Assembly: GCA_040507985.1 (NCBI GenBank)
Contig: JBEVNR010000057.1
Location: forward strand, 14,128 to 78,127
DNA: 64,000 bases
Origin: Rickettsiales bacterium
GTDB lineage: Bacteria > Pseudomonadota > Alphaproteobacteria > Rickettsiales > UBA6187
Reading direction: 5' to 3'
In this document: piece by piece, positions 8,492 through 32,400 of the stretch
Layout: each line of letters begins with the position of its first letter
How positions within the stretch are numbered: position 1 is the stretch's first letter
Program-made: the position numbers and the translations under genes
Notes under the pieces: model-generated
Told to the model about the DNA's origin: nothing
Seen by the model: only the letters and a program-made list of their open reading frames with translations
Database searches by the model: none

Positions 8492-11400
8492 TTACAACCC
8501 GTATTTTCCTCGTAAATACCCCATAATGGCCGCCTCGCTCTGGCCTTTAACGTGATTCTCGAAAATAATTGCTTCCGCGACGTCGTGGCTTGCCGTCGAG
8601 GCGTTGCCGCCGATATGCATGCCGAACGTCGTGTTCAGCGGCGGGAAAGAGGATAATCCCTTTGTCACCGATTGATTGACCGTCGACGACGCCGAACGTC
8701 GCACGAGCGTCGTCATGCCCATAAAGCGAGACGACGCGCTCACATAGGCATGGGTGACGACGGGCAACCCGACGGAGTCGGAAAGATTCATCCGTACCGC
8801 CGATTCGCCCGTTATGTCAAGCGACGCGTGGCCGTAACGGTAGCCTACGCCTCCCGGAAGCGAAGGATTGGCGTAGCTTTCGGCGTAATTCTGTTCGTCA
8901 AGATAGAGCGACCAATAGCTTCCGCCGTAAGGAAGCGACAGGCCGATATTGCGCGCCGGGTCGCCGAAGGCGATCAGGTTGTTCGGCGCACGCGTATTCT
9001 CCGTCGTCACCACGAACACGCTCAGCTCGCTTGCACTTGCGCCGAAGGGATCGGGAACGTCTAAACTCCGCGCCTTGCCGCTTTCGTAGGCGAAACGCAG
9101 CGCCGGCAACCCGCCGATCCCCGACCCTGCATAGGCGGGCCGCAAGGTCGGATCCGCTTGCGTCGCGTCGTTGCCCTTGCCGGATTTGTCGCGCCATATG
9201 GCGGGGCGAACGGACTGGTCGTAGCGCAGCGAGCCTTGGCAATAGGGATCGGAGGCGTCGAGCCATAATTTTACCTCCGGCAAACCGCTTATGCCGCCGG
9301 GAGACGAGGAGGACAGGCATTCGCTCGTTTCGGGGTTGCGCACGATCGTAATTCCCCATTTCACGCCAAGATAATCCTCCATCGCCGTCATTTGCGCCAG
9401 CGTCACGTTTTGGTCGCCGTAGGCCAATATTTCGCCGACGGCGCCGCTCCAGGTCGCGTACCCTGCAAGCGCTCCGGCGGCGCCCACCGCGTTCGATCCG
9501 TTCGCCTGCCCGCTGCGCGCGGGCGGGGAGTCGGCCATCCGTGTTATGCCGTTGGTGCGTATGCGGCGCATATTCCCGTCGTAATACGCCGAAACGACAA
9601 AGGGTTGGCTCGTCGAAAACCCGAGGGCGCCGGCGGAGTAGGAACCTTTCCAGCTATTTTCGATCAGCGTCGCGCTGCGCATCGCGATGAAATTGCCGGC
9701 CATGTCGACGTCGGTGCGCCCTAAATTGAGCAGCCCCTGCGCCCGCGCCGTCTCCGCCGTCGCCACGGCGAACAAGGCGTAGCGTCCGGCGCCGTTAAAG
9801 GCCGCGACGTTCGGCAATCCCATGTAATCGTTCGCTCCGTCGAACACCATCGCGGACTTGCCGGAGAGATACGACTTGACGTATAGCGGACGGTAATTCG
9901 CCGTCGATTGCACCGCGTCGTTGCCGTTCCGCGACTTATCGCGCCATATGCCGGCCGCTTCGGCGTCGGAATAATTGGCGAGCGTTCCCAAACATAGCGG
10001 GTCGTCTGCGTCCAGCCACACCGCCGGCGTTTGGGTCACGCCCGAAACGGAGGGCGACGCAGCCGACATACATGGCGCCGTCGTCATGTCGTAGGCGGCA
10101 ATCGCGTATTTCGTGCGCAAATAGCTTTCGAGCGACGCAATTTGCGTGCCGGTTAGGCTCGTGCCGGCATAGGCCAGGACTTCGCCGATTTTTCCGTCCC
10201 AATTGGAATATCCGTCCACGCCGCCAACGGAGAAACGTCCGCCCGCCTGGCCGTTGCGCGTTCCGACGCTTTCTTCCGCCAATTTTGCGCCGTTCACCCG
10301 CACCGATCGATTGAATCCGTCATAGGTCGCGCTAATAATAAAGGGAGAGGTGGGCGCAACGCTCACCGGCGCGTTGGTGCCGTCGGACCACCAGCTATTG
10401 CGCCATTCGTAGCCGGACGTTCCGCTCGCCAGCGCCAGCACGTTCGATTTGCCGGATTGCTGCGCGTGGTGGAAGGCGAGCAAGCCTTGCGCCCTCGTCA
10501 CGTCGGCTTGCGCCGCCATGAACACGGCGTACACGTTCGCCCCTTCGAGCGCCGTCATCTCCGGAAGATCGAGCGCGTCGTCCGTGCCGTCGAAATTCAT
10601 CGCGCCCTTACCGTTCGTCCAGCTTGCGACGTAGAGAGGGCGAGGAGAGGCGGAATCCCATTGCGCGGCGTCGTTGCCCTGGCCGGACTTGTCGCGCCAT
10701 ATGGTCACGGCGGCCCCATCGGCGTAGGCGGGAGAGGCCCCGCACAGCGTGTCCGATCCGTCCAGCCATAGTTTAAGCCCGGTCGTCACCCCCGTACCGC
10801 CCGGATTAGAGGAAGACGTGCATGCGCCTTGCGCGGGGGGCACGACGAACGCTCCCCATTTTTGGCCTAAATAATTTTCCACGGACTTAGATTGCGTCGC
10901 GTTCAGCGCCCCTTTATAAAGTAAGACTTCTCCGACGTCGTTTTGCCCCCAGTAATTGTTCCGCACGTGGGAAATATAATACACGTCGGGCGCGATCGTG
11001 GAGTTATTGGCGAACGGATCCTGCGCGATAAGGTTTTTATTGCGATAGACTTGCGCCTTTCCTGCGGCGAGTTGCAGGCGCCACACCGCCATGCCGGCGG
11101 CGAGCGCGCCCGACATGTTCACGTCGCCGTTATCCATGGCGACGGAGAACGTGCCGTCGGTCTGGCCGACAAGGAAGGACAGCCCGGCCGGTTCTTGCGC
11201 GACATAGCTATAGCTCGACGCTTTTTTGTCGAACGCGAATATCGCGTCGCTATCGGAGGCGCTATCGTAATTGCGCGAGGCAAGGAAGATCGTAGCCTCC
11301 CTTCCCGTCAGCGAGAACGCCATGTTGCCGCTCATCGCGTCGTCGACGCCATCGAACCGTATGACGGGCAATCCGTTCTCCATGTTCTTTTTGTAGGTGG

Positions 11401-14400
11401 GAGAACCGTTTTTCAGCGTCGCGTTATAGACGTTGCCGGACTTGTCGCGCCACAGATCGACCGCCGCCCCGTCGGCATATTGCACCGACGCGCCTTGGCA
11501 ATAGGGGTCGTTCGCGTCCAGCCAGACGGTTAGCCCGGCGACGACTCCGGTCGCGCCCGGATCGGCAGTCGACGCGCAGGCGGCGGTTCTATTGTCTTTG
11601 GCGAACCATTTCGCCTGTAAATAGGATTCAAGCACATTCACGTTCGCCGCGCTTAGGGCGCCTTCATATAATAATATTTCGGCAAAATCGTTGCGTCCGA
11701 AATTGGCGCCGCGCACGTGGGATACGTAATATTTATCGGGCGTGACGGTAGATGTGTTCGCGAAATTGTCTTGTCCCGCCAACGCTCCGTTGCGATAAAG
11801 CGACGCCACGCCGGATTTGAGCGCCAGACGCCATACCGCAAGCCCCGTGGGAATGTCGGCCAACGCGTTTATATCGCCTTGGTCCATCAAAAGCTGCGCC
11901 TTGCCGTCCGTGGAGTAAACGGCGAAATTCAGTCCGGCCGGTTGGAGCGCCAGCGTTGCCGTCGAAGGCGCGGAACGGTCGGTGGCGAATATGCCGTCCC
12001 AGTCGGTGACGGAGTCTTTATTGTCCGCCGCAATGAATATGGTTGCTTCGCGATTCGTAAACGTTAAGGCGCCGAAGCCGCTCATCGCGTCGTCCACCCC
12101 GTCGAAACGCACGACGGGCAATCCATTTTGCGCGTTCGTGACGTAACTTGGCGTGCCGCCGTCCAATACGGCGTCATATCCCCTACCGGATTTGTCGCGC
12201 CACGTATTGACGGTAGATCCGTTTGCGTATTGGGCGCTTGATCCTTGGCAATACGGATCGTTCGCGTCCAGCCATAATTTCAGGCCGGAGGTGACGCCGC
12301 TTCCGCCCGGCCCGGCATTCGACGCGCAGGCGACATACGCCGCCGTGCCCCATTTATTGCCCAGATATTGTTCGACGGAACGCATTTCGCCGTCGGACAA
12401 GGCGCGATTATAAAGAATAATTTCGCCGAAATCGGCTTTTGCCATCGATCCGTCGCGCTCATAGCCTATGGTGACGACATTCGACGTCACGGCGCTTGCA
12501 TTAACGTAGGCGTCTTCCGCGACTTTCACTCCGCTGCGGAACATTTTCAATGCCCCCGCTTGCGCGCGCATCGACCATACGGAGAAATTGACGTCGGCCG
12601 CCACCAGCCCCACCATATCGTAATTATCGCGTTCGGTGAACAATTGCCCGTCGACGTCGCTGACGCCGAACACAAACGCGTTAGGATCCTGATACACGTT
12701 GCTATAGGCCGAGTTGGTATTGTCTAACGTAAAGAGCGCCCTCCAGTCGCTTTGTAAGTCTTTCGGAGCCATCGCAAAAAACAGCGTCATTTCCCGTTGC
12801 GGCAAACTTATCGGCGCTTGTACGGCCATGGCGGAACCGGCGTCCGCGCCGTTAAAATACATCACGGGCAATCCGTTCTGCGTATTTTTCTTATAGACGG
12901 GAGCGTCGTACGTCGTGACGGCGTCGCGCACGTATCCGGATTTGTCGCGCCATACGCTAACCCTTTCTGCGTCTGCATATTGGTTGGCCGCGCCTTGCGC
13001 TTTAGGATCGTTCGCGTCCAGCCATAATTGCAGCCCGCTCGTCACGCCCAAATTGCCGGGATTGCCTCCCCCTGCCCCGCCGCCGGAGGTAATGCCCCAT
13101 TTCGTCATTAAATAGTTTTCAAGCGCCGTTATTTGCGTATCGTTCGGCACGCTGCCGCCATAGACGAGCAATTCCGCCTCTATGCCGTCCCAATAATTGC
13201 TTCCTGCCGCATTGCCGCCGATACGGTTCGAACCGTTTTGCGTGAAACTTGGCGCGCCGGGAGCGTCCTGGCCTTTAAGCGCGCCGTTTATTTTCAGTTT
13301 ACGCGCGGAACCGTCCCATAAGGCGGACACAAGAAAGAGCTGACCTTGCGTCACGCCCGCCGCCACCGTTTGGTTGCTTGGCGCGCCGCTCCAATCTTGC
13401 TTCCATATATTGCCGGACGTCAATAATTGCGCGTTGTTTTGCATGATGGAAATTAAATGCTGCGAGGCTTTGGAAACATCGTCCGTCGCGGCGACCCCGA
13501 ACACGGCATACGGCGCGTTGCCGACAAGCGAAGAGAAATTTCTCAATATTACATCATCGCTGCTGCCGTCGAAATTCATCCCGGCACGGGCGCCGGGCAA
13601 ATTCGTGACGTCATAGGTCGGCCAGGCGGCGGGATTATCCTGAACGGCGTCGTTGCCGTTGCCGGATTTGTCGCGCCACAAGGCGACCGACGCTCCCGAC
13701 GCATAGCGCGACGCCGCTTTTTGACAATAAGGATCTTCCGCGTCGAGCCATAATTTCAGCCCCGCCGTCGCCCCCGCGCCTCCCGGGTCGGACGACGATG
13801 CACACGCCGCACCTTCTTTTGGTATGGTAATTTTCCATTTGTTCATTAAATATTTTTCGAGGGCGATGCGCTCGGCGTGCGTCTGCGTTGTGCCCACATA
13901 GGCTAACGCTTCGGCGATCGCGCCTTTCCACGGGTAGAGTATCGCGCTTGCGTTGCCCGGATCAGGCATCGCGCCGATCATGTTTCTTGTGCCCGGCGAG
14001 AAATTCGGAGCGGAAGGAGAAAGCCATTTCTTCGTTTCGCCATTCTTTTTCACCAGCAATTCGCTGCCGTTCCATACGGAGGAAACCAAAAACAATTGAT
14101 TTACGGAAGGGGTTACCCTAGTTAATTGCTGGCCTCCTCCCCATGATTGATTCCATGAATTGATTGGAGTAAGGCTTTGCGACATGTATTGCGCCGACGT
14201 CGTATCGCTTAAAGAAACGACCGTTCCGCTCGCCGCTCCAAGCGAAGACGCGCTCATTACCATAAAAGCGGCGTACGGGGCGTTACCCGTCATACTCGGC
14301 ATAGACGGCACGCTTAAATAATCGTCCGTACCGTCGAATTTTATCAATGCGGGCAGGGAGGCGTCCGACGTATCGTAAGTCGGTTTGTTCGCCGCCGTGT

Positions 14401-17400
14401 TTTGCGTCGCGTTACTCGCGTTGCCGGACTTGTCGCGCCAAAGATTGACCGCTCCGGCGTTCGCATAGGGGGTATATCCGCCTTGGCAATACACGTCGGC
14501 GGCGTCGTACCATAACTTTAATCCCGTGGTCACGCCCGTGGCGCCCGGATTGGGGGACGACGTGCACGGATAGGCGGAGGCGTCTATCGATATGCCCCAT
14601 TTATTGGCAAGGTAGGCGGTCACGGCGTTTATGTTCGCCTCCGTCAGCGTCGTGCCGCCATAGACCATAATTTCTCCGATATGGCCAATCCAGCTTTGGT
14701 CGGCGCCCGCCCGCTGGCCAATATAGCCAAATCCGTCGAAATATTGGTTTCTGGCGCCCGGCGTGTCTTGATTTCTTACTACCCCGTTAAATCGCGTGTC
14801 ACGCGTCGTGCCGTTCCAGGTGGCAAGATAAATAAAAGGCTGGTTTGCCGCAATCGACGCAGTGGAGGTGTTTTGCGTCGTTCCGAACCAATCGTGCGCC
14901 CATTGGTTAGAAGAATTTAAAAAATGGGAATTAGAAGAACGATTCGTCCATTTGCCAAAATCCAACAGCTTTTGCTGATAACCTGCTATGGCATTAACCT
15001 CCGTTAGCGCGAAAACATAGTAATTCGCGTTACCGCCTAAGGATTTGACGGCAGGAACGTTCATACGGTTGGCGTTTGTGGTGAAATACACGGAGGAAAG
15101 TCCATTGCGCCAGCCGGAGACATTCGTGGGTTTATAGCTTGCCGTGCTCTGCCTTGCGTCGCGCCCGTTGCCGGATTTGTCACGCCAAAGGGAAATGGCG
15201 GCGCCGTTCGCATATTGGCTTGCGGAGCCTCGGCACAAAGGATCGGAGGCGTCCAGCCATAACGATAAAAGGTTCGTTGCTCCGGTGATTTTGGGATCCG
15301 CCGATGAGGTGCATACCGCAGGAAAAGCCGATATCGCCCATTTATCCGCCAAGTACCTTCCGATTTTCACCACGTCGGGATCGCTCAGCACGACGTTGCC
15401 GTAAACAATGGCTTCGGATATTTTTCCGTCCCATTTTTCCCCCGACGTTTGCAGCGCGCGCCCGATGGAGTTAATGCCGCTTTGTTGGCCCGCATGGGCG
15501 GAAAAAGAGGCTTCCGCCCGCGTCACGCCGTCAAAACGCAAGACGCGAAGCGCATTCACGTTATCCCACAGCGCCCCGTAAATAAACGCCTTGTTCGCGG
15601 CAAGGGCGCTATCGGCTTGCGATACGTCGAGATCCCCCCCCCACCAGGAATTGCGCCAATCACCGGAGGCGCTGCTAATGGTGTTTTCGATATAGGCGTT
15701 GGTGATATTCGGCGTTCCTATCGAAATGATGGACTGCCTCCGCAACGCGTCCGTTTGCGCGACCATAAAAATCGCGTAGGAATTGTTTCCGAGCAGCTCC
15801 GGCAGATTGGGAAAACCGATATAATCGTCCGTGCCGTCAAAATCCATCGTCGGCAAGCCGTTGAGTCCGGTTTGTATATATTTAGGTTTATAGGCGTCGA
15901 CAAACTGCACGCCGTTTGATTCTTTTCCCGATTTATCCCGCCATAGGCCGACGGAGGCGTTGTTCGCGTATTGCGTCCCGCTTCCCATACAATAGGAATC
16001 GGCGGCGTCCAGCCACAGCGCCAAGCCGGCCGTCACGCCCGTATTGCCTGGATTGCTTCCCGAGGTGCAGGCAAGCGGCACGGATATGCCCCATTTTGCC
16101 GCAAGATAGCGTTCTACCTTAATGACGTCGGCGTCGCCAAGCGTCGCGTTGCCGTAACCTATGGCCTCAGCAATTTTGCCATCCCATCCACCATAATTTG
16201 ACCGTACCTTCCCGAATCCGTTCGCTTCTCCGTATTGAAGCGCGTGCGTCCCGGAATTCGTTTCCATCGCCAGCATTCCGTTAAAGCGAAATTTCCGCAC
16301 CGACGTCAAAGGGTTCCATACCGCCGAATATATAAACGGAGCGTTAGCGGCTATTTTGGATACCGACTGCGTAACGGATCTATCGTTGCTTCCCCACCAC
16401 GCATCTATCCATGTACCGCTTGAATCAACCATCGCGGTTCCTTCATAGGCATCGTTCGTGCCGCTTTTACCTATAACAAACAACATTTGTTGCTTTAATA
16501 CATCCGGCTGCGCGACAAAGAAAAGCGCATAGGCGTTGTTGCCGGAAAATTCCGACATATCCGCCATCGCGAGCACGTCGTCCGTACCGTCAAAATCTAT
16601 GGCCGACAGAGAGTTGACTGCTGTTTTACGGTACGCCGGCTTATAGGCCGCCGTCGTTTGCGTCGCGTTATTGGCCTTGCCGGACTTATCTTTCCATAGC
16701 GCTACCGCCGCGCCGTCGGCATAGGGCTGCCCCGTTCCGGTGCATAACGGATCGGCGGCGTCCAGCCAGAACGTCAATCCGCTCGTGACGTTCGTGCCGC
16801 CCGGATTGCCGGCGCCGGAGCAGGCCCCGTACGCGCCCAGTCCCCATTTCGCGGCGAGATAATTTTCTACGCTCGTCATGTTGGCGTCGCTGAGCGTCGC
16901 ATTGCCGTAGGCGATGATTTCCGCGATTTTTCCGTTCCAGTATGATCCGGGGGACGGGGTAAAGTGACCGATCTGGTTGCCCCCGTTTTGCTCGCCGGCA
17001 AAGGCGGGAGCGGTCGCCTCATATTCCGTCGCGCCGTTTAAGCGAAGCGTTTGCAGCGTGCGCGCGGCGTCCCACCGTGCGGCATATATAAACGGCGTCG
17101 AAACGCTAAATTTGGAGATATCGATCGTTGCCCCGCCCGCGCCCCAATTATATTTCCATGCGTTGTTCGCGGGAGACATCTCATGCGACGTAAAGGAGTT
17201 GACGCCAACGGCGGACTTGCCGACGCCTAACAGCGTTTGCTGCGCGATAACCTCCGGTTGCGCTACGACAAAAAAGGCGTAGGAACTATTCCCCGTAAAC
17301 GCCGCCATGTCCGGAAGCGTCAAATAATCGTCCGTTCCGTCAAAACGCATCGCGGGCTTTCCGGTCGCCAATCCCTGTCCGGCATAGACCGGTTTTTTCG

Positions 17401-20400
17401 ACGCCTGCGACTGCGCGGCGTCGTTGGCTTTGCCGGATTTATCGCGCCATAATCCGACGGCGGCGCTTTCGCTATATTGCGCGGCAACGCCGGAACATAG
17501 CGGATCGGACGCGTCCAGCCAAAACGTCGGCACGCTTGCCACGCCGGCCGGCGCCACGTACGGGGCACACGCGCCAAGAGAGGACGACGTTCCCCATTTG
17601 GTCGCCAAATAGGTTTCCAGCGTTTGGGCGTCGGAGGACGTGATCGCGCCGTCATAGACGATAAGCTCGCCAATATCCTGATCGCTTGATCCATACCCGA
17701 CATAAGCGCCGCCTTTCGTCGACAGATTGCCGGAGGTTTTCGTCGTTTCCGCCGCTTTCGTGCCGTTCACCACGATTTTGGCTTTTAAGTTAGAGCTTGA
17801 ATAATAGGCGCGCACAATGGAGATGCCGCCGACGGACGTCGTGCCGGCAGGCATGGAAAGCGTCGGCGCACCCGAAGTGACCCATTTCCACATCGGATTC
17901 GTCGAGCCGGCCGCCTGTAAGTACAACCCTGCCTCCGCAGCGCTCGGCGCGCCGTCGAAGCTAATGAATTTATTGTCGGCGGCAACGTTCTCGCGCAACG
18001 CGGCAAATATGTACATGTCGGCAAGTCCGCCGCCGAACGTGTCGGCGCGCTTCATGGCGTCGCTCGTGAAGCGTATCGCCGGCAGCGCGTTCATATAATT
18101 CGTGCGGTATTCCGGCATAACGGCGACGTCGGTTTGCGACAGCGCGGCGTTATGGCCGGACTTGTCGCGCCACAGGAAGATTTTTTCGCCGTCCGTATAT
18201 TTCGTTCCCGTTCCCTGACATAGCGGATCTTCCGCGTCGTACCATAGCGCAGGCGCGCGGGAAAGCGTCGCGCCGCCCGGCAAGGTGGAGGACGAGCACG
18301 CGGCGTTGATCGGCGAGGCCACGCCCCATTTTTGCGCCAGATATTTTTCCGCCGCCCACGCCTGCGTCGGGCTTAGCGCGCTATCGTAGAGCAATATTTC
18401 CCCGACGTCGGCGCGTCCGAAATTTTGGCCTCCGCGCACGTGGCCCACATAATACGCGTTCGGCGAAATAAGGTCGGCAAGATACGACGCGTCGCGCGAC
18501 GTCACCACCCCGTTTTTTGCGACGAACGCTTGCGCGCCGTCGATTTCCGCCCGCCATACGCCAAAGGAGACGTCGGCGGCGGAAGAAACGTTAATGTCTT
18601 GATTGTTGCTCAGCAATCCTACATTTTGATCGGAGGTCCCTCCTCTTCCGAAATAGATTAACGACGGATCGGAAAACGGCGATGCGGTAGACGCGCGGTC
18701 GTCCAGCGTAAAGACGGCGTCGCTATGGCCGGCGGCGTCTCCGGCGGCAAGCGCGACGACAATCGTCATTTTTTTGTCGGGGAAACGCCAGGACGCATAG
18801 CCCGTGAGGCCGTCGTCCACACCGTCGAACCGCATGACGGGCAGCGCGTTTTGGATGTTTTTCTTAAATATCGGCGCGCCGTAGACGATATCAGCATGGT
18901 AGTTGTTTTTTGATTTGTCCGCCCAGCGATAGGGAACGGCGCCGTCTTCGTAAAGGGCGTTGTTTTGGCATAGCGGATCGGCGGCGTCGAGCCACAATGC
19001 CGGCGTGGCGTCTACCCCGACGATCATGGGGTTGGAAGACGAGGCGCACGTCCGCGCCGGACCGGGAATATCGTATTTATCGCGCAGATAGGTGACGACC
19101 GTCGCTTCTTCCTCCGCCGTCGTCGCGGCGTTATAGGCGACGAACTCTTTTACGTTCCACGTGCCGCCGCCATAACCGAGCATCACGTTCGATAAATTGC
19201 TTACGCCGGCGCCGGCGCCCGTCCATTTCATGCGCCCTCCCCTATCGCCGCCGGCTTTAATGGCCCCTTCTTGGTAGGAAGCGAAGCCCATTTCGTGTTT
19301 GGAAGAAGAGATATAACCGCCATAGACGCCAAGCGCGCCGAGCGTCTCCAGCGCCGCGCTCGACTGCAACGACGTATCGCCGGTATGGGCGAGCGTCCAC
19401 GCCCCGGCGTTGGCCGTTTTCGCCGTTAACGAGAAAATCGACGCGTTGTCGGCGCTAAGGAAGGTCGCGAAGCCTTTTTTCTCGGCGGCGACGGCGCCGT
19501 CGTAGGCTATTGGAGCGATCGCCATATAAAACGACAACTCGCCGCCTGCGCCGAACGCGCCGCCGTGATGCCATAGGGCGGCCTGCTCGAACGTCGCCCC
19601 CGGTTCCACATTCGAGACGTAGGGAATCTTATTGCTTGAAAAAACGTTATTTTTAATGCTTCCGGGCTGCGGATAAACGTCGTATCCTTTTCCGGATTTA
19701 TCGCGCCATATTAAAAACGGATTAATAATTGTGCCGGCGCCGCCTCCGGGCAGAGCAAACTTATCTCCCGTGCAATAGACGTCTTTGCCGTCCAACCACA
19801 ACGCCATGTCGGCGGCGCGCGATTCCATTCCCGGAATGGAATCCGGCACGCAATCCGCCAATATTTTTATAGCCTCGACAATATTCCATTTTTTGGCGAG
19901 CGCAAGATTCAGCGCCCGCGCGTCGGCGTCGTTATACGCGCGGTTATAGGCAATAACCTCATGAACGGCGCCCCTCCAATATACGCCTCCGGCGCTACCC
20001 AGCATAAACGCGTCGCTTGCACTTGACGCCCTGCTTTGCGCCGGCGCGTCCGCCGCGCGCCATAACCCGTTTTTATAGATTTTTCTCGTCGTTCCGTCCC
20101 ATGACGCTTCATATAAGAACGTTTCTTGTTGCAGCGCCATGGGAAAGGCGTGGACCATAAAGGTTTGTTGCGGAACTAAAAGATCGTTGCCTTTCCAGCT
20201 ATTTGCCCAATTATGCGTTGCGCCGTCAAATAGGTGCGCGTTCGCGTGATTGTTCGTTGAGGAATCCGGTAAGGCCAGCATCCCGCGCGCGGCGCTCACA
20301 TCGTCTAAACGTGCGACGGCAAAGATGGAATAAGGCGCGTTGCCAGCAAGTTCCGTGACGGCCGGCACGCTTAAGCGATCGTCCGTGCCGTCGAAAACGA

Positions 20401-23400
20401 CGCCGCGCCGATTGAATCCGTCCGATACGGCGTAAATCGGCGCGAATCCGTCCGTTTTTTGTCTGGCGTGATAGTTTTTGCCGGATTTATCGCGCCACAG
20501 GGACACGCGTTGCCCATCTCCATAACTCGAGGCTCCGTTGCAATAGACGTCATTCGCGTCCAGCCATAAAGCGGGCGCGTTCGCTCCGGTCACGCTCGCC
20601 GCCGGCCCGGCCCCGGGCGAACACGCGACGTCTTGCGGACGCGCTATTCCCCATTTCGTCGCAAGATAGGATTCGACGGTTTCGATATCGTCGGCAGAGA
20701 CGGGTTTTGCCGTCAGTATCGCCTCTCCAACATAGAGAACGGAGCCGGCGCCGTTCGTCGCGCCGCTCGCGCCGCCGATTCTAAACGCGGCGTTCGCAAA
20801 GTCGTAGCTTGAGAAATTCGCAGCGCCGAGGCGTTCCGTCACGCCGTCGACGCGTAGCCCCGCACGATTATTGGGCGCATGTAAGAAAGCCGTCGCAATA
20901 TGATAGCCGGCGTTCGTTCCTGCGGTCGTTTTGGCGACGGAGACGCTAAGCGGAAGCGCGCCGGCGGCAACGTTGAGCGCGCCCATGTCGGTTGCGCCGT
21001 TTGCCGCGCCCAGCATATAAAACGATCCGTTGCCGTTAAGCGCGCCGCTTATGTACCGCGCCGTCGCATCGGGCTTGCGGAAGACGACGAACGCCGCCCC
21101 GGAATCCGTTCCGCCCAAGTCGGAAACAAGCGTCGGCCCATCATAAAAATCGTTTGCCGCCATTTTTATCACCGACCGCACGCCATGGTCGCGCTTATCG
21201 TACGCGGGAGCGCCGCTTGCCGTTAACTTTCTGCGCGCGCTCGATTTATCGTACCAGTATTGCGCGGTTTGGCCTTGCGTATATTGCGAGGTGCGGCCGG
21301 CGCAGAACGGATCGTCGGCGTCCATCCACATATCCGGCGGCGTCGTCAGTCCATCCAGCGCAGCGTCGTGGGCGCACGACATGCCCACGCCCCAATTGCC
21401 GGAAATTTGCCCTTCGACGGCCTGTATCCCTTCGTCGCTCAAGGCGGCGTCGTAGAGGATAATCTCGGCGACGTCGCCTTTATAGTAATGCGGACCGTCG
21501 CTACCTATCGCCAAATCGCGCTCATAATAATTGAAGGAGGGAACGGACGTGGCGCCTCCGCTCGCGACGTCCGCGCCGTCGATGCGAAGCCGCATGTTTG
21601 CGCCGTCCCGTTGCGCCGTATAGAAATGCCAATTATCCGCAAAACCGCCGGCGGGGACGAATGCAAGGCGCCCGTTGCCGGAAGTCGCGTTTCCGACGTC
21701 GAAAAACAGGCTTCCGCCGCCGGAAAGCGCCGTTATCCCCATATACGCCGGCTCGCCTTCTTCGTCTCCCCACGTGAATATTTTTCCTTCATGGGCGGGA
21801 GAAGCATAATTCGCGAGGGCAAAAAACGTCATGTCGCCGTTTGCGCCAAAGATTTTTCTTCCCTCTACGTTTACGCCCAATTTATTGCTTGTGCCGTTAA
21901 ACCGCACGATCGGCCGACCGTTTAATATGTTCCTCTTAAACGTCGGACGGCGCGAAGAATCGCTCGCATACACGTCCCTTGCCCACCCCGAACGATCTTT
22001 CCACAAGGCGACGGCGGCGCCGTCCGCCAAAGGATGCCGCACCCCTTGGCACGCCAGGTCGTTTGCCGAAATTCGGAAAGTTAAATGCGTTTGAGGTATG
22101 GAATCGTCCGCCAGACAATCGTTGCCGTCCGAATCGCCCGTGGCGTCGCCTTCTTTTGGCGAGGCGTCGTTTTGTTTCTGGTCGATGCCCCATTTTTCCA
22201 GAAGATAGCGCTGAACGACGATTACATCGCCTTGGGACAAGGGTGATCCATAGATTATGACCTCTCCCGCCTCCCCGTCCATCCAGGAAGAATTCCCCCC
22301 TTTGGCTCCGATTCGATTGTCTATGCCGGTCGCCGCATGATTTTTAACGCCGTCGGGCGCCAACATGGCGGCGTCGGCGTTAAATAATATCGCTCTGCCC
22401 AGGGCGGGATCGTATACCACGCTCGCCGCATAGAGCATGAAGGGAGAGACGCTGTCCGTTCCCATGGAAATGGGTCCGCCGGAGAATCCGTACAGCGTCA
22501 AGTCTCCCCGCACCCCTGCGTGGGCGAGCTCAAGCGCGGTATACGATCCCAAAGAAGCGGCATTGCCGCCGGAGACAAGCGTTTGCGCGCTTGTGTTCGT
22601 CGCTTCGCGGAATACCGCGAAAATCGTAAAGGGACTATTGCCGACGGGAACGGTTTCGTCAGGAATATGCAACCAGTTTTGCTCCGACGCCACGAATTTG
22701 ACGGCGTTATGGCCGTTTCGGGTTTCGCGTCCGACGTCGGTCGCCTCCACATAGGGGCGGCGCGCGTCGGTGAGGTGATAGGCATGGCGGTAATGGCCGC
22801 TTTTATCGCGCCATACGGAGAGTTTTTGTCCGTTCGCCGCGACCGAGTCGGATTTGCAATCGCCGTCCAGATCGTCGCCGTCCAGCCACAAGGCAAGGCC
22901 GGTTCCTTTAGTAGCGGGAATCGAGTTCAGCGCGCAATCCCTGTATATGCCCCATTTTTCCTGCAAATAGCGTTGAATTGACGCCGTGTCGCTGCCGACG
23001 CCCGCGCCGAGGCGACGATTAAACAGAATAATTTCCGCCACGTCGCCCTTATAACACTCGCCGGAACAAGCGGTTGCCGTGCTAACCAGACGCGCCGCTC
23101 CGATCGAGTCCATACGGCTCGCCGCGTCTTGCGCCCTAGCGGCGGAAGAAGAGACGAGCGTGCGCTCCTCGCCGTCCACATACATGTTGGTCGTCGCCGC
23201 GCTTCCCCGCACCGTCAGCACGCGCATCGTCTGCGGGAAAAGATTCGCGCCCGTTTTAAGCCGTTGTTCCGTACCGTTCGTATTGTAGTGGCGCATGAGC
23301 GACGCGTCGACGCCGCTTAACAAATAGCCGTGCGTATTAAGTCCGCCTTTTTCCTGCCCATAGATGAATTGTTGCGTGGCGCCGTCTTGTAAATTCGTGC

Positions 23401-26400
23401 TAAACGCCGCGAACAGGGTATAGTTATCGTTATATTTCGGAAAAACGGACTTTCTTATGCCCAAATAATCGTTAATTCCGTCAAAAGAGACAATGTTGCG
23501 CATCGAGCCGTCATTGCCTTGCACGGTGTTTTTCACCACGTTCGGTTTCGCCGCGCCCCACGCGTCCGCGTTATTGCCGCTTTTATCTTGCCAAGCGTCC
23601 GCCGCGCCGGCGGGAGTGGCGTCGTCCGGCACGCAGTCGGCGTCGATATCGTCGGCGTCGAGCCATAACGTCAGGCCGGAGACGTTCGCCAGCGATTTTT
23701 CGGAGCATACGCTCACGATATTCCATTTTTTATTTAAGTATTCTTCCAGGTCGTAGATTTGTCCGTATTGCGCGGACGACAGCGCCGCGTTATAGACCAG
23801 CATCTCCGCGATGGAGCCGTTAAAATAGGCCGACGCCGCCGCGCCGTCGCGCCCGATCTGGTTGTTGCCGCCGGTCGCCGACGTCGACGTCGAGGCGCCG
23901 ATCTCTTGCTTGCGGTTGATACGGATCGTGCGCGCGCCCGAATCGTATCGCGCCACCAACATCTGCGCCATGTCGGGCATGACGCTGCCCCAGTCGGTCG
24001 ACGTAAAGGTTGCGCCGACGCCGATTTTGGCGGTGAAGTCGTCTCCCAATCCCACGCCGAAGCGCCCGCCGCCCGTGCCGCCCGACATAAGGAAGCGATC
24101 GCCCGTTCCCGGCAACGCCTTATACGTCAATATGGCGGCGACGGTGTACGGATCGTTGCCGAGCGGAATGGTTTTATCCTGCATGCGAAAATATTCCCCG
24201 CTCGCCGCGTTAAAGGTGACGGCGTTGCGGTTATTGACTTTTACGCCGTCGATGGACGGCGCCACGCCCCACGACGCGTGGTTGCCCTTGCCGGATTTAT
24301 CCACCCACACCACCACGTCTTGGTTCGGAATATTGCCGTCAGGGGTGCAATCGCCGTTCACGTCGTCGGCGTCGAGCCACATTTTTAAATTGGCGCCGGC
24401 GATTTTCACGGGCGGATTGGTCGACGCGTCGCACGACGACAGCAACGCCCATTTAGAGATAAGGTAGTTTTCCACCTCTTTTAAGTCGACGGTAGAAAGT
24501 GCGCTGCGGTAATAGAGCATTTCGGCGATATGGCCGTCAAAATTGAACGTCTCGAGCAGGTCGCCGTTTTCGTTGCGATGTACGCCCGCGCCGATCCAGA
24601 TATATTGGCTCGCGTTGCCGTTGCGCGACGTCGTGTCGAAGGCCGATCCTATTTCCTCGCCGTTCACCCGCACCATGCGCCCGTCGGCGTTTTTATCGTA
24701 ACGGAAGCTGAGCGCGTAGGGAATCGAGCGCGCGACTTTATAGGGCTTCATTAAAGGGTACGCATTGATCGCGCCGTCGACGCTCGTCTCCCACAGATTT
24801 TCGACCGCGCCGGTCAGGCTGCGATAGAGGCTAAAGACGTTCGGAGCCGTGGCGCCGGCGACGCCGTATTCCGACGAGGCCAGCAAATATTGCTCGGCGT
24901 AGCGTTCGGTTTGCATCACCGCCAGCATGGTGTAGGAATTATTGCCGTTTGGCATAAGCGGATGGTTGGCCGGCGCGACCGGGTTCAGCAACGACAAGTT
25001 TTCGTTGTTCGCGCGGTCGAAGGTGACGACGTTTTTCCCGGCAATCACTTTTCTGCCGACCGACGGCGGCGATTTTGCGCCGGGCGTAGGTGCGGAGGCG
25101 TTAATCGCCCATACGGTGCCGTCCGCGACGGCGTTATATCCGCTGCCGCTTTTGTCCTTCCAAGCGCTTACGTCCGTTTCGGCATAAAGCGCCGCGTCGG
25201 TTTTGCAATTCGCGTCCATGTCGCCGGCGTCGAGCCACAGCGCCAGATCGTTGCTTGGCGCGTAATTAGTCGGGATTTCGGGGCAAAGATAGCCGCCGAG
25301 ATCCCACTTGCCGGCCAGATAGCTTTCAATCGCGGAGACGTTTTTCGCCGTGAGCGTCGAACCGGCATACACCAAGACTTCCGCGATCATGCCGTTCCAA
25401 TAACGATTCGCCCCGTCGTTATAGACGCCGATGCGGTTATTGCCGTTTTGCAGCGTATTATGGGCGGGAGGCGCGTCGGAGGCGACCTGCCTTCCGTTCA
25501 TGCGCACCGTGCGCGCCGCGCCGTCCCACGCGCCGGCGAACATGAACGCGCCGACGCCCATATAAGAGGCCGCATTGGGGCTAAGCGCCGTTCCCTGCCA
25601 ATCGTGGTTCCATAGCTGATTCGTGCCGTTATACCAATGGCCGTTGCCTTTATTGGCCTGGCCGGAGGCGCCAAGCATGGCGAAGCCGTTTTTCGCGGCG
25701 GGCGCCCGCGCATAGCCTATTCCGAACACGTAATATTTCGCGTTGCCGGCGAGGGCCGCAATGTCCGGAAGCGCGAGATTGTCGTCCGTGCCGTCAAAAT
25801 TCATCGCCGGTTTGCCGAAGCGCCAATTCGTCGCATAGGTCGGCTGCAATGCCGCCGTCGATTGCCCGGCGTTATTGCCCTTGCCGCTGCGGTCGCGCCA
25901 TAAATACACCGCCGCGCCGTTTGCGTATTGCGCCGCCTTGCCCTGACAATAGGGGTCTTCCGCATCCAGCCATAATTGCAACCCGTCCGTGACGCCCGTC
26001 GCTCCCGGATCGGACGAGGACGCGCACGCGCTCGTCGCGTCGGAAGAAATTTTCCATTTTTTCGACAAATAATCGTGGACGGTCGCGATTTGCGTGCCGG
26101 TTAAGGCGGTATTATACAGCAATATCTCGCCGACTTCCGCTTTGAGGTAATTCGGATCGCCCGCCGCCGGATTGCCCGCGCCCACCCACAGCGCGTCGTT
26201 CGTGTCTTTAATGGCCGTTGACACGAAATTATGGGTTTTCGTCAATTTGCCGTTTTCATAGAACGACGCCGTGTTGCCGGTTCCCGCGTTGCCCATGTCG
26301 AGCGCGACGGACAGCATCACCGGCTTGTCGACGTTCGGCTTGGGGGAGACATAGCTATACGACGCCGCGCCCGCGTCTTTAAAGAACAACCGCTGGACGC

Positions 26401-29400
26401 CGCTGCCGCCGGTCGCGCCGGTCCCCAGCAGCGAATTAATGCGCCAATTATAGGCGTTGTCCGCGCCTTTCGACAAGAGATAAGCCGGGCGATCCAAATT
26501 CGAGACGCTCAGCACGATAAAGCCGGTCATGTCTTGCGATAGGCTTAAACCCACACTATCGGCGGCGGCCATGTAGTCGCCCCCGGCAAAAACGACGGAC
26601 GGCAGGCTTGCGCCGAAGCCGGACGTCGTTTTATAGACGGGCTTCGCCGCCGCCACGGTTTGGCCGGCGTGGTTGTTGTTGCCGGATTTGTCTTTCCACG
26701 ACGCCAACTCTACGCCGTCGGACAATTTTCCGCCATAGCAGGTCGGATCGGTTGCATCCAGCCATAATTGCAGGCCGCCCGTCACGCCGGAGCCGGAGGA
26801 AGGCACGCACGCCGCCGCCGTTGCGATTCCCCATTTTTGCGCCAAATACGCCTCTATCGCCGGCACGGTGGCAGCGTCCATCGACGTATCGGCATAAACG
26901 AGCATTTCCGCCATCATGCCGTCAAACGTATATCCGGACGTATGCAACATGCGCCCGATGGCGTCAACGTTCGTATTGCTCATATTGCGCGCGCCGGGCG
27001 CGTCCTGCGCCTTGACGGCGCCGTTAATGCGGGTCGTGCGGATCGCGCCGTCCCATGTTAGGGTGGCAAGGAACGGCACGCCGGCGCTGACGCCCGCCGC
27101 CGCCGCCGACACGTCTAAATCCGCTCCCCACCAGGCCTGGCGTAAATTGGCGTTAGAAAATTCAAGCGATAAGTATGATCTGTTGCTTGGCTCGCCCAAC
27201 GCAATGAAATTTTTTGTGGCTACCACGTCGGTTTTTACGACGAGAAAAATATTATAAGCGTTGTTGCCGTTCAGTGCGGAAATCACCGGAAGATTGACGT
27301 AATCGTCCGCCCCGTCAAATTCGACGGCAGGTAGCGCGTTCATGCCGGATTGGCGATAGACCGGCATAAGCAAGGCCGTAGACTGATAGGCGTGATGCGA
27401 GGAACGAGACTTATCGCGCCATAACGAGACGGCGCCGCCGTCGGCGTAGCGCGTCGCCTCTCCAAGGCAATACGGATCGTTTGCGTCCAGCCACAGGCGA
27501 AGCCCTGCCGTTTTTCCGGTATTTCCCGGATCGGCGGAAGAAGTGCAGACGCTTTGGGCGCTTATGCCCCATTTGACCGCCAGATAATTTTCGACCGTCG
27601 CGATATTGACGTCGGAGAGATTCGTATTTCCATAAACGACGATTTCCCCGATTTTTCCGTCCCACCGCTCGCCCGTCGTGTGCAGCGCGCGTCCGACGCT
27701 ATTTATGCCGCTTTGTTGTCCGTTATGGGGGGAGGGCGCGATTTCAGTAATTTTTTTCCCTTCGAAGCGTACCGATAGCTTGCCGCTCGCATTATTCCAC
27801 ACGGCGCCGTAGAGGAAAGGTGCAGTTGTCGCTATTGTATTCTCTTGCGTAGCGACGTCGATATAGGCCCCTGTTCCTCCCCACCCATGTCGCCACGCCC
27901 CTGCCGCATCGTTTAAGGTGTTTTCAATGAAAACGTTGTTAATGCTCGGTGTGCCGATGCTTAGCAACGCCTGCCGCCTTAACGCGTCCGGCTGGGCCAC
28001 CGCAAAAATGGCGTAGGAGTTATTCCCCAGAAGTTCCGGCATGTCGGGCAGGGACAAATACCCGTTCGTGCCGTCGAAATCGAGAACGGGAAGCGCGTGT
28101 ATGCCGGGCGTCGGCGCATAAACCGGCCACGAGCCGTTAAGCGGCTGCGTCGCGTCGTATCCTTTGGACGATTTATCCCGCCACAGACGCACCGCCTCGC
28201 CGGAGGCGTATTGCGCGCCTGTTCCTTGACAGAACGGATCGGCGGCGTCAAGCCAGAGCGCAAGTCCGCCGGAGACGCCGCCGGGACCGGAGGAGAACGA
28301 AGACGCGCAGGCGTTAAAGACGCGCAACGCTTTCGCTATGCCCCATTTCGTCGCCAGATAGCTTTCGACGCTTTTAACGTTGGCGGCGGTTAACGTCGTT
28401 CCCGCATAAACGCTTACCTCTTCGACGGCCCCGTCCCAATATCCGCTGCCGGAGAAGGTTTCGCCGATGGCGTTTAAGCCGTTTTGCAGCCCGTTATGCG
28501 CGACGGACGGCGTTCCGGAGCCGGTCGCGACGCCGTTAAAGCGCGTGGTGCGCGTCGTGCCGTTCCACGTGGCCGCATAAAGGAACGTTTCTCCGGCGGT
28601 AAAGACGACGGGGGTGTTTTGGTCGTTCCCGTACCAATTATGCCGCCAGTTCGTGGCGCTGCTCATGAAATGCACGTTCGATCCGTACAAATTCGTCGTC
28701 GACGTCAGGTTAAGCAGCGATTGCGACCGGATTGTATCGGCATTCGCCACCGCAAAAATGTAGTAATTCGCGTTGCCCAACAACTCCGGCATGTCCGGCA
28801 TGCGCAAGCGGTCGTCCGTTCCGTCGAAATCCACGGCAGGTTTTTCGTTTTGGCGATTCAGACGATAGATCGGGCGGTATCCGGAGGCAGAAATGGCGGC
28901 GTCGTTGCCCTTGCCGGATTTATCGCGCCATATCGCCACCGTCGTGTCGCCGCCATATTGGTTTTCTTTGCCTATGCACAGGGGATCTTCGGCGTCCAGC
29001 CACAATATGTTGCCGGTCTGATAGGGAAGCGGCTGCGTGATCGGGCCGCACGCCACCCCGACGCCCCATTTATGACCAAGATAGGCTTCGTTTACCGCCC
29101 GCTCCGTCGCCGTGACGGCATGGTCGAACAGCACTATTTCCCCGACGTCCACCCTGCCCCAATCGTTATCCCGCGCTGCCGCTATGGAATACGTATCCGG
29201 AGCGAACGCCGTTCCCGCATACGCGTCCTGCGTGATTTGTGCGCCGTTTTTGTAAAGCGTCGCCATGTTTGACGCGAGTCGCGCCGTCCATATCGTAAAA
29301 TCCGTCGGCGTCGCGGCGGTCGCGTCCAACCCGTAGCCCGCGCCGTGCAACCGCAGGGTATTATCCGCCACGGCGTTGCCCAACCCCAGAAAATTCGGTT

Positions 29401-32400
29401 CCGAAGAGACGGAAGCTCCGCCTTGCTTATCTAAGGAAAACACGTAGGCATTGTCTTTGGCTCTATCGACGACCGCCGTCGCCACCATAAGCGTCATGTC
29501 GCGCGAGGCGAAGCCGAACGCTCCTTTGCCTTGCATGCGCTTATTGCCGTCGAAGCGCATGACGGGCAGGGCATTTTGCGCGTTAGCGGTGAAAAGAGGC
29601 GCCGTCGCCGTTAGAGGAGAGCTAGCATATCGGTCGTATCCGGATTTATCCAGCCATAACGTAGCCGATTCGCCGTTCGCATAGGCGCTCGCGTCGCCGC
29701 ACATCGGATCGCCCGCGTCAAGCCATAATTGCAATCCCGCCTTATAAGGAAGCGCGTCGTCTTCGCTGACGCATACGGCGGCGGCCAATCCCCACTTCGC
29801 CGACAAGGCGCGTTCGGCGCCGCGCCTTTCGTCTGCCGACATGGTGCGGCCATAGAGAACGATTTCGCCGATGCGTCCGGAAAAGGGCGCGCTTCCGTCC
29901 GATTTCGCGCCGATGCGCAAACCTTTATTGAGCGTGACGGCGGAAAGATTATACGGCGTCGTCGCCATGTCGCCCGAGGCGTTTATTCCCAGTTGCAGCG
30001 TGTCGGCCGTGTTGTTCCACACAAAACTATACAGCGCCGTTTTTCCGGCCGTATCTTCTTTCGACGCGGCGCCGGTCGTGACGCCAAACGCGACGTTCTG
30101 CTTAAATAGTGACAGGCCTAACGCGCCTTCTCCTTCCGCAAAGCTTGCCGACAGCATAGTTTGCGCGCTTTCGCCGACCGACGGAGCGGCAACGATAAAA
30201 CCGGTAAGATTCGATACGTTCAAGAATTTATCGGCGCCGACGTCAAAAAAATCGCCCGCTTGCAACTCGGCCATCGGTAATCCGTTCTGCGCCTTGCTTT
30301 GCCAACGTATGGCGTTGTTGGCGCCGGCATGTATCATATTCGTCGTCTTATCTTTCCATGTGCCGACGGAAGAAGCCGTCGTCAGCGTGCCCTTGCAATC
30401 GGCGTCGGCGGCGTCGAGCCATAATATCCTGTTAACGGTAGGTAACGACATGTCGTTATAAGAACAGGTGCGATCAATGGGAATTCCCCATTTCGTCGCC
30501 AGATAATCTTCGACGAATTGCCGTTCGTTTTCGGCAATCACGGCGGAATAGACAATCACGTCGCCGATATTGCCCTTAAAGTAGCGCTCGTTGCTGAGTC
30601 CGTTCGCGGAATCGGGCGAGGCGCCGATCATAATGCGTCGTACCGACGCGATATTTGCCGGGCTTTGGTCGCCGTACACCCGCTGATTGCCGTCAACATA
30701 GAGTTTTATTTCGGAATTTTTCGCCGTCAGGTTATATATCCGCATCGCGTCGGTGGTATAGGCGCCGAGCGTGCGGGCGCTTCCCGAAACGTCGTAGCGC
30801 AGCAAATGCGACGTGGCGACGCCGAATTCCAGACTTTGGACGGGAAGCGGATTGGGCGCCTGCGCGCCTTGGCCGTATAGACGCAGCATCGTGCCGGGCG
30901 TCGCCGTTTCTTCGGCGGTTTTCGCGGTGACGAATAACGTTAGCAACGACGAATCCGCCACTTTCAGGTCGACGGAACCCACGGCGCCGGCGCGATGCCC
31001 CGCCACGTCGTCGACGCCGTCGAAGCTAATGGCGCCAAGGGCGCCCGACGTCGCCATTTTCGCCCCGCCGCGCACCGGCAGGCTTGCGCCAGAGCCGGAT
31101 TTATCGTTCCATACCGACACGCTCGCACCGTTTACCGCCGCCTCGCCGGTGCAGTACGGGTCTTTCGCGTCCAGCCATAATTTAAGTCCGGCGGGATAGG
31201 GGAAGGGAATATTGCCCGCGCACGTCGTCGCCGTTTTTTTAATATGCCATTTATTCGCCAGATAGGTCGAGACGGTCGTCAGGTCCGTGTCGCTCAGCGC
31301 GTCGGAATAGAGAATCGCTTCGCCCAGCTGAATGGTATTGTAGGCGTTGTCGTATCGTCCAAGGAAATAGGCGCCCGGGGTGACGGTAGCGCCGACATAG
31401 CCGACGTCGCCCAGTTTTTTCGTGCCGTCGACAAACAGCTCGGCTTCCGTCGCCTTTAAGCGAAGTGCGTATGCCGCCACGCGGTCGGGCGCGTCGAGAG
31501 AGTTTACGCGATTTTTGGCCAGAAACGAAAAGTTTTTATTCGCGGCCGGGTCTATCGCCACGTTAATCCCCGTCGTTTCCGCGTACCCTCCCCATAGACC
31601 GGTCGCCGGCGCGGCTTTGGTTAAGATAAACACGCCGGCGCCGTCTTTGGTGAGATCAAGCAGATCGGCCACGACGAATATCGTCGCCTTGCCGCCCGTT
31701 AGAGTGACGTTATACGTGCCTGAGAGATAATCGTCCACGCCGTCAAATACGAGCGCCGCCTTGCCGTTTAGCGTGTTAAGCGTGCGCGTCGGGGCGTTGG
31801 CGGGAAGAGGAGCGGTTGCGGCGCGGCCTTTGCCGCTTTTGTCGTTCCATTGCGCAAGCGGCGCCGTCGGGGAGGAAGATTCCGCGCAGGCCGACGTCGG
31901 GTCGGTCGCGTCGAGCCATAATTCCATTTTTGCGGAGGGAATGCCGACATTGTCCGCACAAAATCCGGAAATTCCCCATTTCTTGCCGAGATACGATTCG
32001 ATTCGCCCGCGATCCGTGTCGGAAAGCGGCACGTTATACGCCAATATTTCCCCGATATAGCCTTTATAGGCGTTGCCGTTCGTGGGAACGGCGCCGACGC
32101 TGAACTGGTTGGATTCCATCCATCCCGTGGGCGCCGCCGCGTTGGTTGCCGTCAGATTTCCCGAATTATATAACGACACGGTAGCGCCGGAGCGTTTGGC
32201 CGCAACCAAATACGGAGCGCCGGCCGGCGTTGCCGCACTCAACTCTACCGCCGCCGGCGCGTTATATATGCCGAACCGAAGGGCGCCTCCTCCGAAAGCG
32301 AACGTAAAATCGCGGCCGGACGCTATGTCCATGCTAATCAACCCGCCGTTATCGGTAGAGGCGGGACCGCCGGACGCGCTTCCCGCATCGGGATATATAA

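Follow-up and report, generated by a model that had tools for sequence, protein, structure and literature searches.

The window analyzed in this study is a 64,000-nucleotide stretch of DNA from a Rickettsiales bacterium (contig JBEVNR010000057.1). On its minus strand lies a giant open reading frame (8492..45814) of 12,440 amino acids, which encodes a prepilin-like N-terminus, a Cys-rich region and then 47 Laminin_G_3 modules. Nearly every boundary between these modules carries two Cys residues, and the most likely reading of the sequence, in our view, is that these two are joined to each other by a local disulfide bond within the molecule (probability about 0.72).

The module array occupies 8495..43747 on the minus strand, that is, from about residue 690 to the C-terminal end of the protein, and consists of 47 modules of about 250 amino acids with a predicted ConA-like/LamG fold. 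When the boundaries were anchored on the strand LWLDA, 46 inter-module boundaries were obtained for the 47 modules, one fewer than a sequence-only reading of this DNA had counted. We refer to the linker Cys, which precedes LWLDA, as C1 and to the second Cys, which follows the DP motif, as C2. The canonical pair of C1 and C2 was present at 43 of the 46 boundaries, in agreement with the earlier claim that nearly every boundary possesses it. Counted from the L of LWLDA, C1 was located between -13 and -18, and C2 at +9 in 38 boundaries and at +11 in five (modules 16 and 25-28). The distance between the two residues at the 43 canonical boundaries was 22-28 residues, not 18-25 as had been estimated. 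A typical example is boundary 42 (12236..12352, minus strand), with C1 at residue 11163 (12326-12328) and C2 at residue 11189 (12248-12250). Modules 25-28 (22115..25336, minus strand) show the C2 that is shifted by two residues, in the form D-x-D-x-x-C (for instance DDVNGDC).

Both Cys were missing at boundaries 1 and 41, and a lone Cys was found at 0/46 boundaries. A pattern of many lone Cys, which would have spoken against a partnership of the two residues, was thus not seen when all boundaries were compared. Fisher's exact test gave p = 6.6e-5 when boundary 2 was counted as lacking both Cys and p = 0.0029 when its linker Cys was taken as C1, but the modules are paralogues, so the realistic count behind these values is two to three independent events rather than 46 trials. 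C1 was 100% conserved in the canonical boundaries, while the adjacent linker positions were conserved to 49% at most. Because C1 is invariant beside such a variable linker, in modules that are only 19-55% identical to each other, the conservation leaves no doubt that selection acts on the positions of C1 and C2.

Three boundaries are without the canonical pair. Boundary 41 (12986..13102, minus strand) encodes KWGITSGGGAGGGNPGNLGVTSGLQLWLDANDPKAQGAA, in which the C1 site has become GGG (13076-13078) and the C2 site GCG (12998-13000), the latter directly preceded by AAA (13003-13001). The codons CCT AAA GCG CAA, which the sequence-only reading had reported here, are indeed present in the DNA. 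Compared with the paralogues, TGC was changed to GGG at C1 inside a new run of Gly codons, and TAT TGC was changed to AAA GCG at C2. Between both patches, about 72 nucleotides are well conserved (…GGC GTG ACG AGC GGG CTG CAA TTA TGG CTG GAC GCG AAC GAT CCT…). Because separate multi-nucleotide patches flank this conserved core, the joint loss in module 41 reads as two events and not as a single deletion or conversion tract. Boundary 1 (42914..43021, minus strand), which encodes RWGISVAVEKDQGPAGISDGLVVWYDAKDITGDGKT, also lacks both Cys, and module 1 is too diverged for its history to be reconstructed.

The earlier statement that two boundaries lack both Cys holds for boundaries 1 and 41, but it overlooked boundary 2 (residues 1184-1240; 42095..42265, minus strand), which has an alternative pair instead. 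This boundary contains four Cys and no canonical pair: two in the linker motif CPNGEC and two at +16 and +28. The latter two, Cys1220 and Cys1232, with Cys1232 located just before WKDRS, correspond to an arrangement that also occurs in relatives and that we call type B below. From this correspondence, boundary 2 appears to have been swapped to the alternative pair.

We then compared the module starts of related proteins. A profile built from 46 modules matched 202,599 representative proteins at E ≤ 0.001, among them many multi-module giants. Of the 150 best representatives, some have the same architecture as the giant protein, namely a homologous prepilin-like N-terminus, a Sushi-like region with about 34-36 Cys, and LamG modules. 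An automatic criterion recovered 18 such proteins, and others were seen besides. The module starts of these same-architecture proteins fall into a small number of Cys states that exclude one another. The canonical pair of C1 and C2, which we call type A, was found in three modules of P0184 and three modules of P0185, which are two independent relatives. Type B, with one Cys at W+15 and the other immediately before the W of WxDKS, was found in 56 modules. The other local pairs were a linker-local pair in P0172 and a helix-linker pair in P0197 and P0268, and the remaining state was that with no Cys. The order of the modules in P0184 and P0185 is the same as in the giant protein, with type B first and type A after it. 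Among 806 modules of 147 relatives, only six had a Cys in the C2 zone without C1; four of these belong to C-x4-C pairs in P0188, and two are truly lone. Covariation and mutual exclusion together are the strongest evidence in this study for C1 and C2 being partners.

P0188 is a distant member, and its C-x4-C pair (GTSCNTGSC) is located in the predicted β1-β2 loop of the modules at residues 452, 1287, 2122 and 2957. On this placement, it represents a further independent positioning of a Cys pair at the same module edge.

Outside these proteins, the type A pair was not encountered. It was present in 0/107 module starts in a word-index homologue search with module 42, which returned only short proteins of one or two modules, and likewise present in 0/261 module starts of the top 40 multi-module proteins. 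Scanning the GTDB species genomes and the JGI metagenomes for WLDAxDP[YL]C and WRDKS gave eight loci, all of them Cys-less distant relatives. Among everything searched, the clamp of C1 and C2 on a Laminin_G_3-type module is therefore rare, being confined to the giant protein, P0184 and P0185, and nearly all of the family's representatives, which number roughly 200,000, lack it. The module bodies are all about 25% identical and do not discriminate between a single and a repeated origin of type A.

These data also bear on the idea that the pair has no function and was simply copied when the modules were amplified, its joint absence then reflecting single replacements or plain divergence. The modules are paralogous, and the 43 co-occurrences are accordingly non-independent; moreover, the history of module 1 is beyond reconstruction. 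Nevertheless, C1 and C2 stayed invariant while their neighbors and the module bodies drifted to about 25% identity, the sites in module 41 were changed in separate patches around the conserved 72-nucleotide core, and single-Cys intermediates are essentially absent in about 850 modules. We therefore regard a functionless pair as very unlikely.

The total inventory of Cys was examined with respect to the partners of the putative bonds. The protein contains 132 Cys, 98 of them in the array, and all can be grouped as nearest-neighbor pairs no more than 28 residues apart, with an even count in every module. Ten other Cys in the array of about 11,750 residues are also close neighbors (1049/1050, 1220/1232, 2254/2278, 3050/3077 and 7583/7587). 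Cys679 lies at the place expected for a C1, but it is part of the last Sushi-like unit of the Cys-rich region. If the bonds were formed in another register, C2 of one module would be joined to C1 of the next across the module body, or Cys of different molecules would be joined, and the array would be cross-linked. Connectivity is not derivable from sequence alone, and the confidence of the AlphaFold2 models at C1, described below, is moderate, which leaves some room for this arrangement. With it, however, the first C1 and the last C2 would have no partner in the giant protein and likewise in P0184 and P0185 with their three type A modules each, and the loss at boundary 41 would strand C2 in module 40 as well as C1 in module 42. 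Pairing within the same boundary leaves no Cys over, and the other Cys of the family all form short-range pairs. A shifted register thus has little chance of being correct.

With regard to the Cys inside the module bodies (1049/1050, 2254/2278, 3050/3077 and 7583/7587), we note a vicinal CC among them, as well as a CSGEC motif just before the last strand.

The position of the pair within the boundary bears on its role. The offset from the W of the KW motif to C1 varies, mostly between 6 and 15, so a free spacer of usually 5-14 residues precedes C1. In contrast, the Ser/Thr-rich cap enclosed by C1 and C2 is conserved (S18, P22, G23, G26 and G30). The sequence-only reading had proposed a disulfide that staples each linker onto the next domain and rigidifies the chain. 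The partnership of C1 and C2 is upheld by the covariation; the staple is not. Because the variable spacer precedes C1 and the enclosed segment is conserved, a more fitting description of the pair is that of an N-terminal clamp within a module, and because the spacer remains between the KW motif and C1, a rigidifying effect on the chain is unproven.

We consider that such a clamp would be formed as follows. DsbA is known to oxidize consecutive Cys while a chain is being translocated (PMC8405906). The giant chain would be threaded from its N-terminus to its C-terminus into the periplasm behind the predicted signal anchor; at each boundary C1 would emerge first and C2 would follow 22-28 residues later, and an oxidase of the DsbA type would join the two. 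All pairs of the array are nearest neighbors, and hence no isomerase would be needed and the array would be an ideal substrate for DsbA only. The loop of 22-28 residues would take in the downstream module's conserved N-terminal segment along with its first β-strand (LWLDA). When closed, it would pin β1 and the N-terminal cap to the β1-β2 turn and fix the start of the module, would shorten the free linker, otherwise about 20 residues long, so that just the variable spacer after KW is left, and would protect the edge strand from peeling or from swapping with neighboring repeats. In the presence of about 90 others, a lone Cys would shift the register of pairing. The near-absence of single-Cys states may be explained in this way, because a lone Cys would invite register-shifted mispairing; such states would be purged and both Cys would be lost together.

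The AlphaFold2 models, which were read through blocks of the predicted local distance difference test (pLDDT) score and through DSSP, give limited information on this point. In a model of one module, the Cys-bearing linker of module 42 (residues 1-30) had pLDDT values of 65/67/89. In a model of two modules (predicted template modeling score, pTM, 0.71), the Cys-less linker of module 41 had values of 53/51/71 at the same position, and the inter-module linker holding C1 of module 42 had values of 85/60/84. The higher confidence of the Cys-bearing linker in these predictions is a weak and indirect signal for a bond. As for feasibility only, simple geometry allows a bond between C1 and C2, since the 14 residues from C1 to β1 can run back along the six-residue strand.

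Several observations weigh against the disulfide interpretation. It is based on covariation rather than on structure or chemistry, and the window offers only two or three independent events of loss or swap. Nearly all modules of the wider family fold without any Cys, which means that the fold does not depend on the pair. The confidence of the models around C1 is only moderate (pLDDT 65-67 in the one-module and 60 in the two-module model), and an isolated β-bridge next to C1, which DSSP assigned in the first model and which we had considered as evidence of proximity, was rejected because it is absent in the second. Finally, the N-terminal match to the pilin family described below is sub-threshold, so the route of export is inferred, and no gene for a Dsb protein or for pilus machinery was found in the 64-kb window.

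For the disulfide to form, the protein must leave the cytoplasm, and the N-terminal portion is relevant here. The N-terminus is MRRTGFSLIEMAAVLGAVAALSVMVAGG, in which a GFSLIE motif and a hydrophobic stretch are visible. By eye, a motif resembling a prepilin-type (class III) signal anchor can be recognized at 45725..45814 (minus strand) as MRRTG followed by FSLIEMAAVLGAVAALSVMVAGG. In a Pfam search, the same segment (MRRTG-FSLIE-MAAVLGAVAALSVMVAGG) scored 12.8 bits against N_methyl (PF07963), which is below the cut-off of 21.2. No match of the N-terminus was found in NCBIfam, and a PDB sequence search with the first 200 amino acids gave nothing meaningful. Homologous N-termini were found in the relatives P0122, P0123, P0136 and P0169. 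Taken together, we read the N-terminus as a predicted prepilin-type signal anchor. Since two Arg are located on the N-terminal side of this predicted anchor, the bulk of the chain would be placed in the periplasm.

The Cys-rich region follows at residues 199-679 (43778..45220, minus strand) and contains 34 Cys. Its score against Sushi (PF00084) was 20.3 bits, just under the cut-off of 20.7. It is composed of repeating four-Cys units, such as CPAGYRGAVYETC…W…C…C, and the Trp before the last Cys resembles that of Sushi/CCP domains; the corresponding region of the relatives has 34-36 Cys. Because of the predicted signal anchor and this Sushi-like region, the giant protein is probably exported, and the extracytoplasmic location that had been proposed from the Cys pairs gains support from these two features.

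A further alternative is that the thiols are reduced, that they are ligands of a metal or cofactor, or that the protein is cytoplasmic. ConA-like domains often bind metal ions, and conserved Asp residues flank C2 (D-A-x-D-P-x-C, with D-x-D-x-x-C variants), both of which would suit a metal site. Two thiols alone are, however, not a usual metal site, and neither a conserved His nor a third Cys accompanies them. The exclusive pairs at other positions (type B, C-x4-C and helix-linker) fit interchangeable staples rather than a fixed site, and the predicted anchor and the Cys-rich region argue for export. We consider this alternative extremely unlikely. Thioester (Cys-Gln) chemistry, prompted by the CQG motif, was also considered and was rejected, since the position of the Gln is variable (C-D/N/S/T/Q-G).

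The identity of the module itself was examined by profile and by model. The Laminin_G_3 (PF13385) match was 46.3 bits against a cut-off of 27.6, and two stretches were matched in a two-module piece. The consensus of the modules is GLxLWLDA…WxDxSGNG…FDGxDD…GDIAEIIVYNRALS…VExYLxxKWG. AlphaFold2 predicted module 42 as an all-β jelly roll with a pLDDT of 88 and a pTM of 0.87, and Foldseek matched this model to lectin and LamG-type domains with E-values down to 4.5e-10. The matches included trans-sialidase lectin domains, BoNT/TeNT Hc-N, an AbnA domain, ERGIC-53 and PilC of Streptococcus sanguinis (7oa8, E = 7.4e-7), and the module profile matched PDB 4qvs, sialidase B, and the LG domains of laminin and neurexin. 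At the sequence level, solved structures cover none of the first 73 profile positions, which include the linker, the LWLDA strand, the DP-x-C turn and the WRDKSG hairpin. By both profile and predicted structure, the module is a lectin-like member of the Laminin_G_3 / ConA-like lectin-glucanase superfamily.

The A-B strand disulfide of the type 1 pilus subunits is the closest functional parallel to the pair of C1 and C2. In FimA, FimF, FimG and FimH, this conserved bond has been described as a "mechanical lock" that needs DsbA (PMC6048123). In both systems, a long extracellular chain would carry one disulfide per β-sandwich domain, placed at the N-terminal strands of each unit, made by DsbA in the Fim subunits and putative here. 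The two differ in that the Fim fold is Ig-like with donor-strand complementation, whereas the giant protein has a predicted ConA/LamG jelly roll; that the Fim subunits are separate polypeptides, whereas 47 modules are on one chain here; and that C1 is located in the linker upstream of β1 and not in strand A. Another comparison is PilC of S. sanguinis (PMC9934059), a modular type IV pilin with a grafted lectin module, whose structure was among the Foldseek matches mentioned above. PilC comes from a monoderm and has one lectin module in about 480 residues, in contrast to 47 modules in 12,440 residues, and the N-terminus of the giant protein matches N_methyl only below threshold. No gene for pilus or type II secretion system assembly was found near the giant gene in the window, and the genes around it are housekeeping genes.

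Giant genes of Omnitrophota are accompanied by nearby genes for type II/IV-like secretion and for class III signal peptides (bioRxiv 10.1101/2023.11.21.568195). They resemble the present gene in being very long ORFs of repeated extracellular domains; however, they belong to another phylum than the present Rickettsiales metagenome-assembled genome (MAG) and consist of another type of domain, and that paper does not describe a Cys pair in each module. For the giant protein family or its C1/C2 pair, no description was found in the literature. Exported repeat proteins with a disulfide in each domain are well known. The clamp would thus be a lineage-specific variant of a familiar theme, and no general principle is changed by it.

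If the pair is a disulfide, its significance is threefold. A hypothetical protein of about 1.27 MDa, encoded by an uncultured Rickettsiales lineage, would be assigned to a place outside the cytoplasm. The bond would define the true module boundaries, which is useful for the design of expression constructs. It would also provide a natural experiment, in which type A, type B and Cys-free modules occur on one fold, for the effects of staples on the folding and mechanics of long tandem arrays.

The giant pilin-like array of 47 lectin modules is itself a larger curiosity than the Cys pair. Its length of 12,440 amino acids is 3-9 times that of any recovered relative; the same-architecture relatives have 1,373-3,863 amino acids, and those with names come from Rickettsiaceae or Rickettsiales MAGs, one relative cluster being annotated as a Rickettsiaceae MAG protein. 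As a speculation that we hold to be rather unlikely as a whole, such giant pilin-like lectin arrays would be restricted to Rickettsiales, and their interchangeable clamps (type A between the linker and the β1-β2 turn, type B spanning the β1-β2 hairpin, and the helix-linker and linker-local pairs) would be mechanical locks that have been tuned, in a filament of about 200 nm that bears force or is threaded through a secretin; the Cys-less, Gly-rich boundary 41 would be a deliberate hinge in it. The linker of this boundary (about 13060-13095, minus strand; residues 10907-10918) is a Gly run, SGGGAGGGNPGN, in place of the A-C-(A/T)-S-S of the other boundaries. Possibly the linker acts as a flexible hinge, and it would then be the most flexible joint of the distal array.

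Two other boundary types have unusual features. The Asp-rich variant after LWLDA in modules 25-28 and in module 16 (residue 4632) reads GDMDANC, DDVNGDC, DDIDADC or DDLDGDC, and its D-x-D-x-D loop is a possible candidate for a cation-binding loop. The linker of boundary 29 (about 22100-22190, minus strand; residues 7875-7905) is acidic and unusually long, KQNDASPKEGDATGDSDGND, and FRISA replaces LWLDA there, with the Cys pair being kept.

On the contig of P0184, two small N_methyl (pilin-like) genes are located about 7 kb downstream (L010 13843-15370), together with genes for MlaA and MlaC; the window is without such pilin genes. By annotation, the presence of MlaA and MlaC indicates a diderm envelope, in keeping with a plausible export of the giant protein.

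The G+C content of the giant gene is 59.6% and that of the remaining window 55.1%; the value for the whole window, 57.8%, is unusually high for Rickettsiales. The start of the giant gene is separated by about 4 kb from dnaA (49735-51183, minus strand), and the giant gene is therefore probably near the replication origin. The DnaA encoded in the window has a 100% identical counterpart in a Rickettsiales MAG, and its next relative is 53% identical. The window also encodes a Sel1-repeat protein of 444 amino acids (62370-63704, plus strand); proteins of this type are often tied to host interaction in intracellular bacteria.

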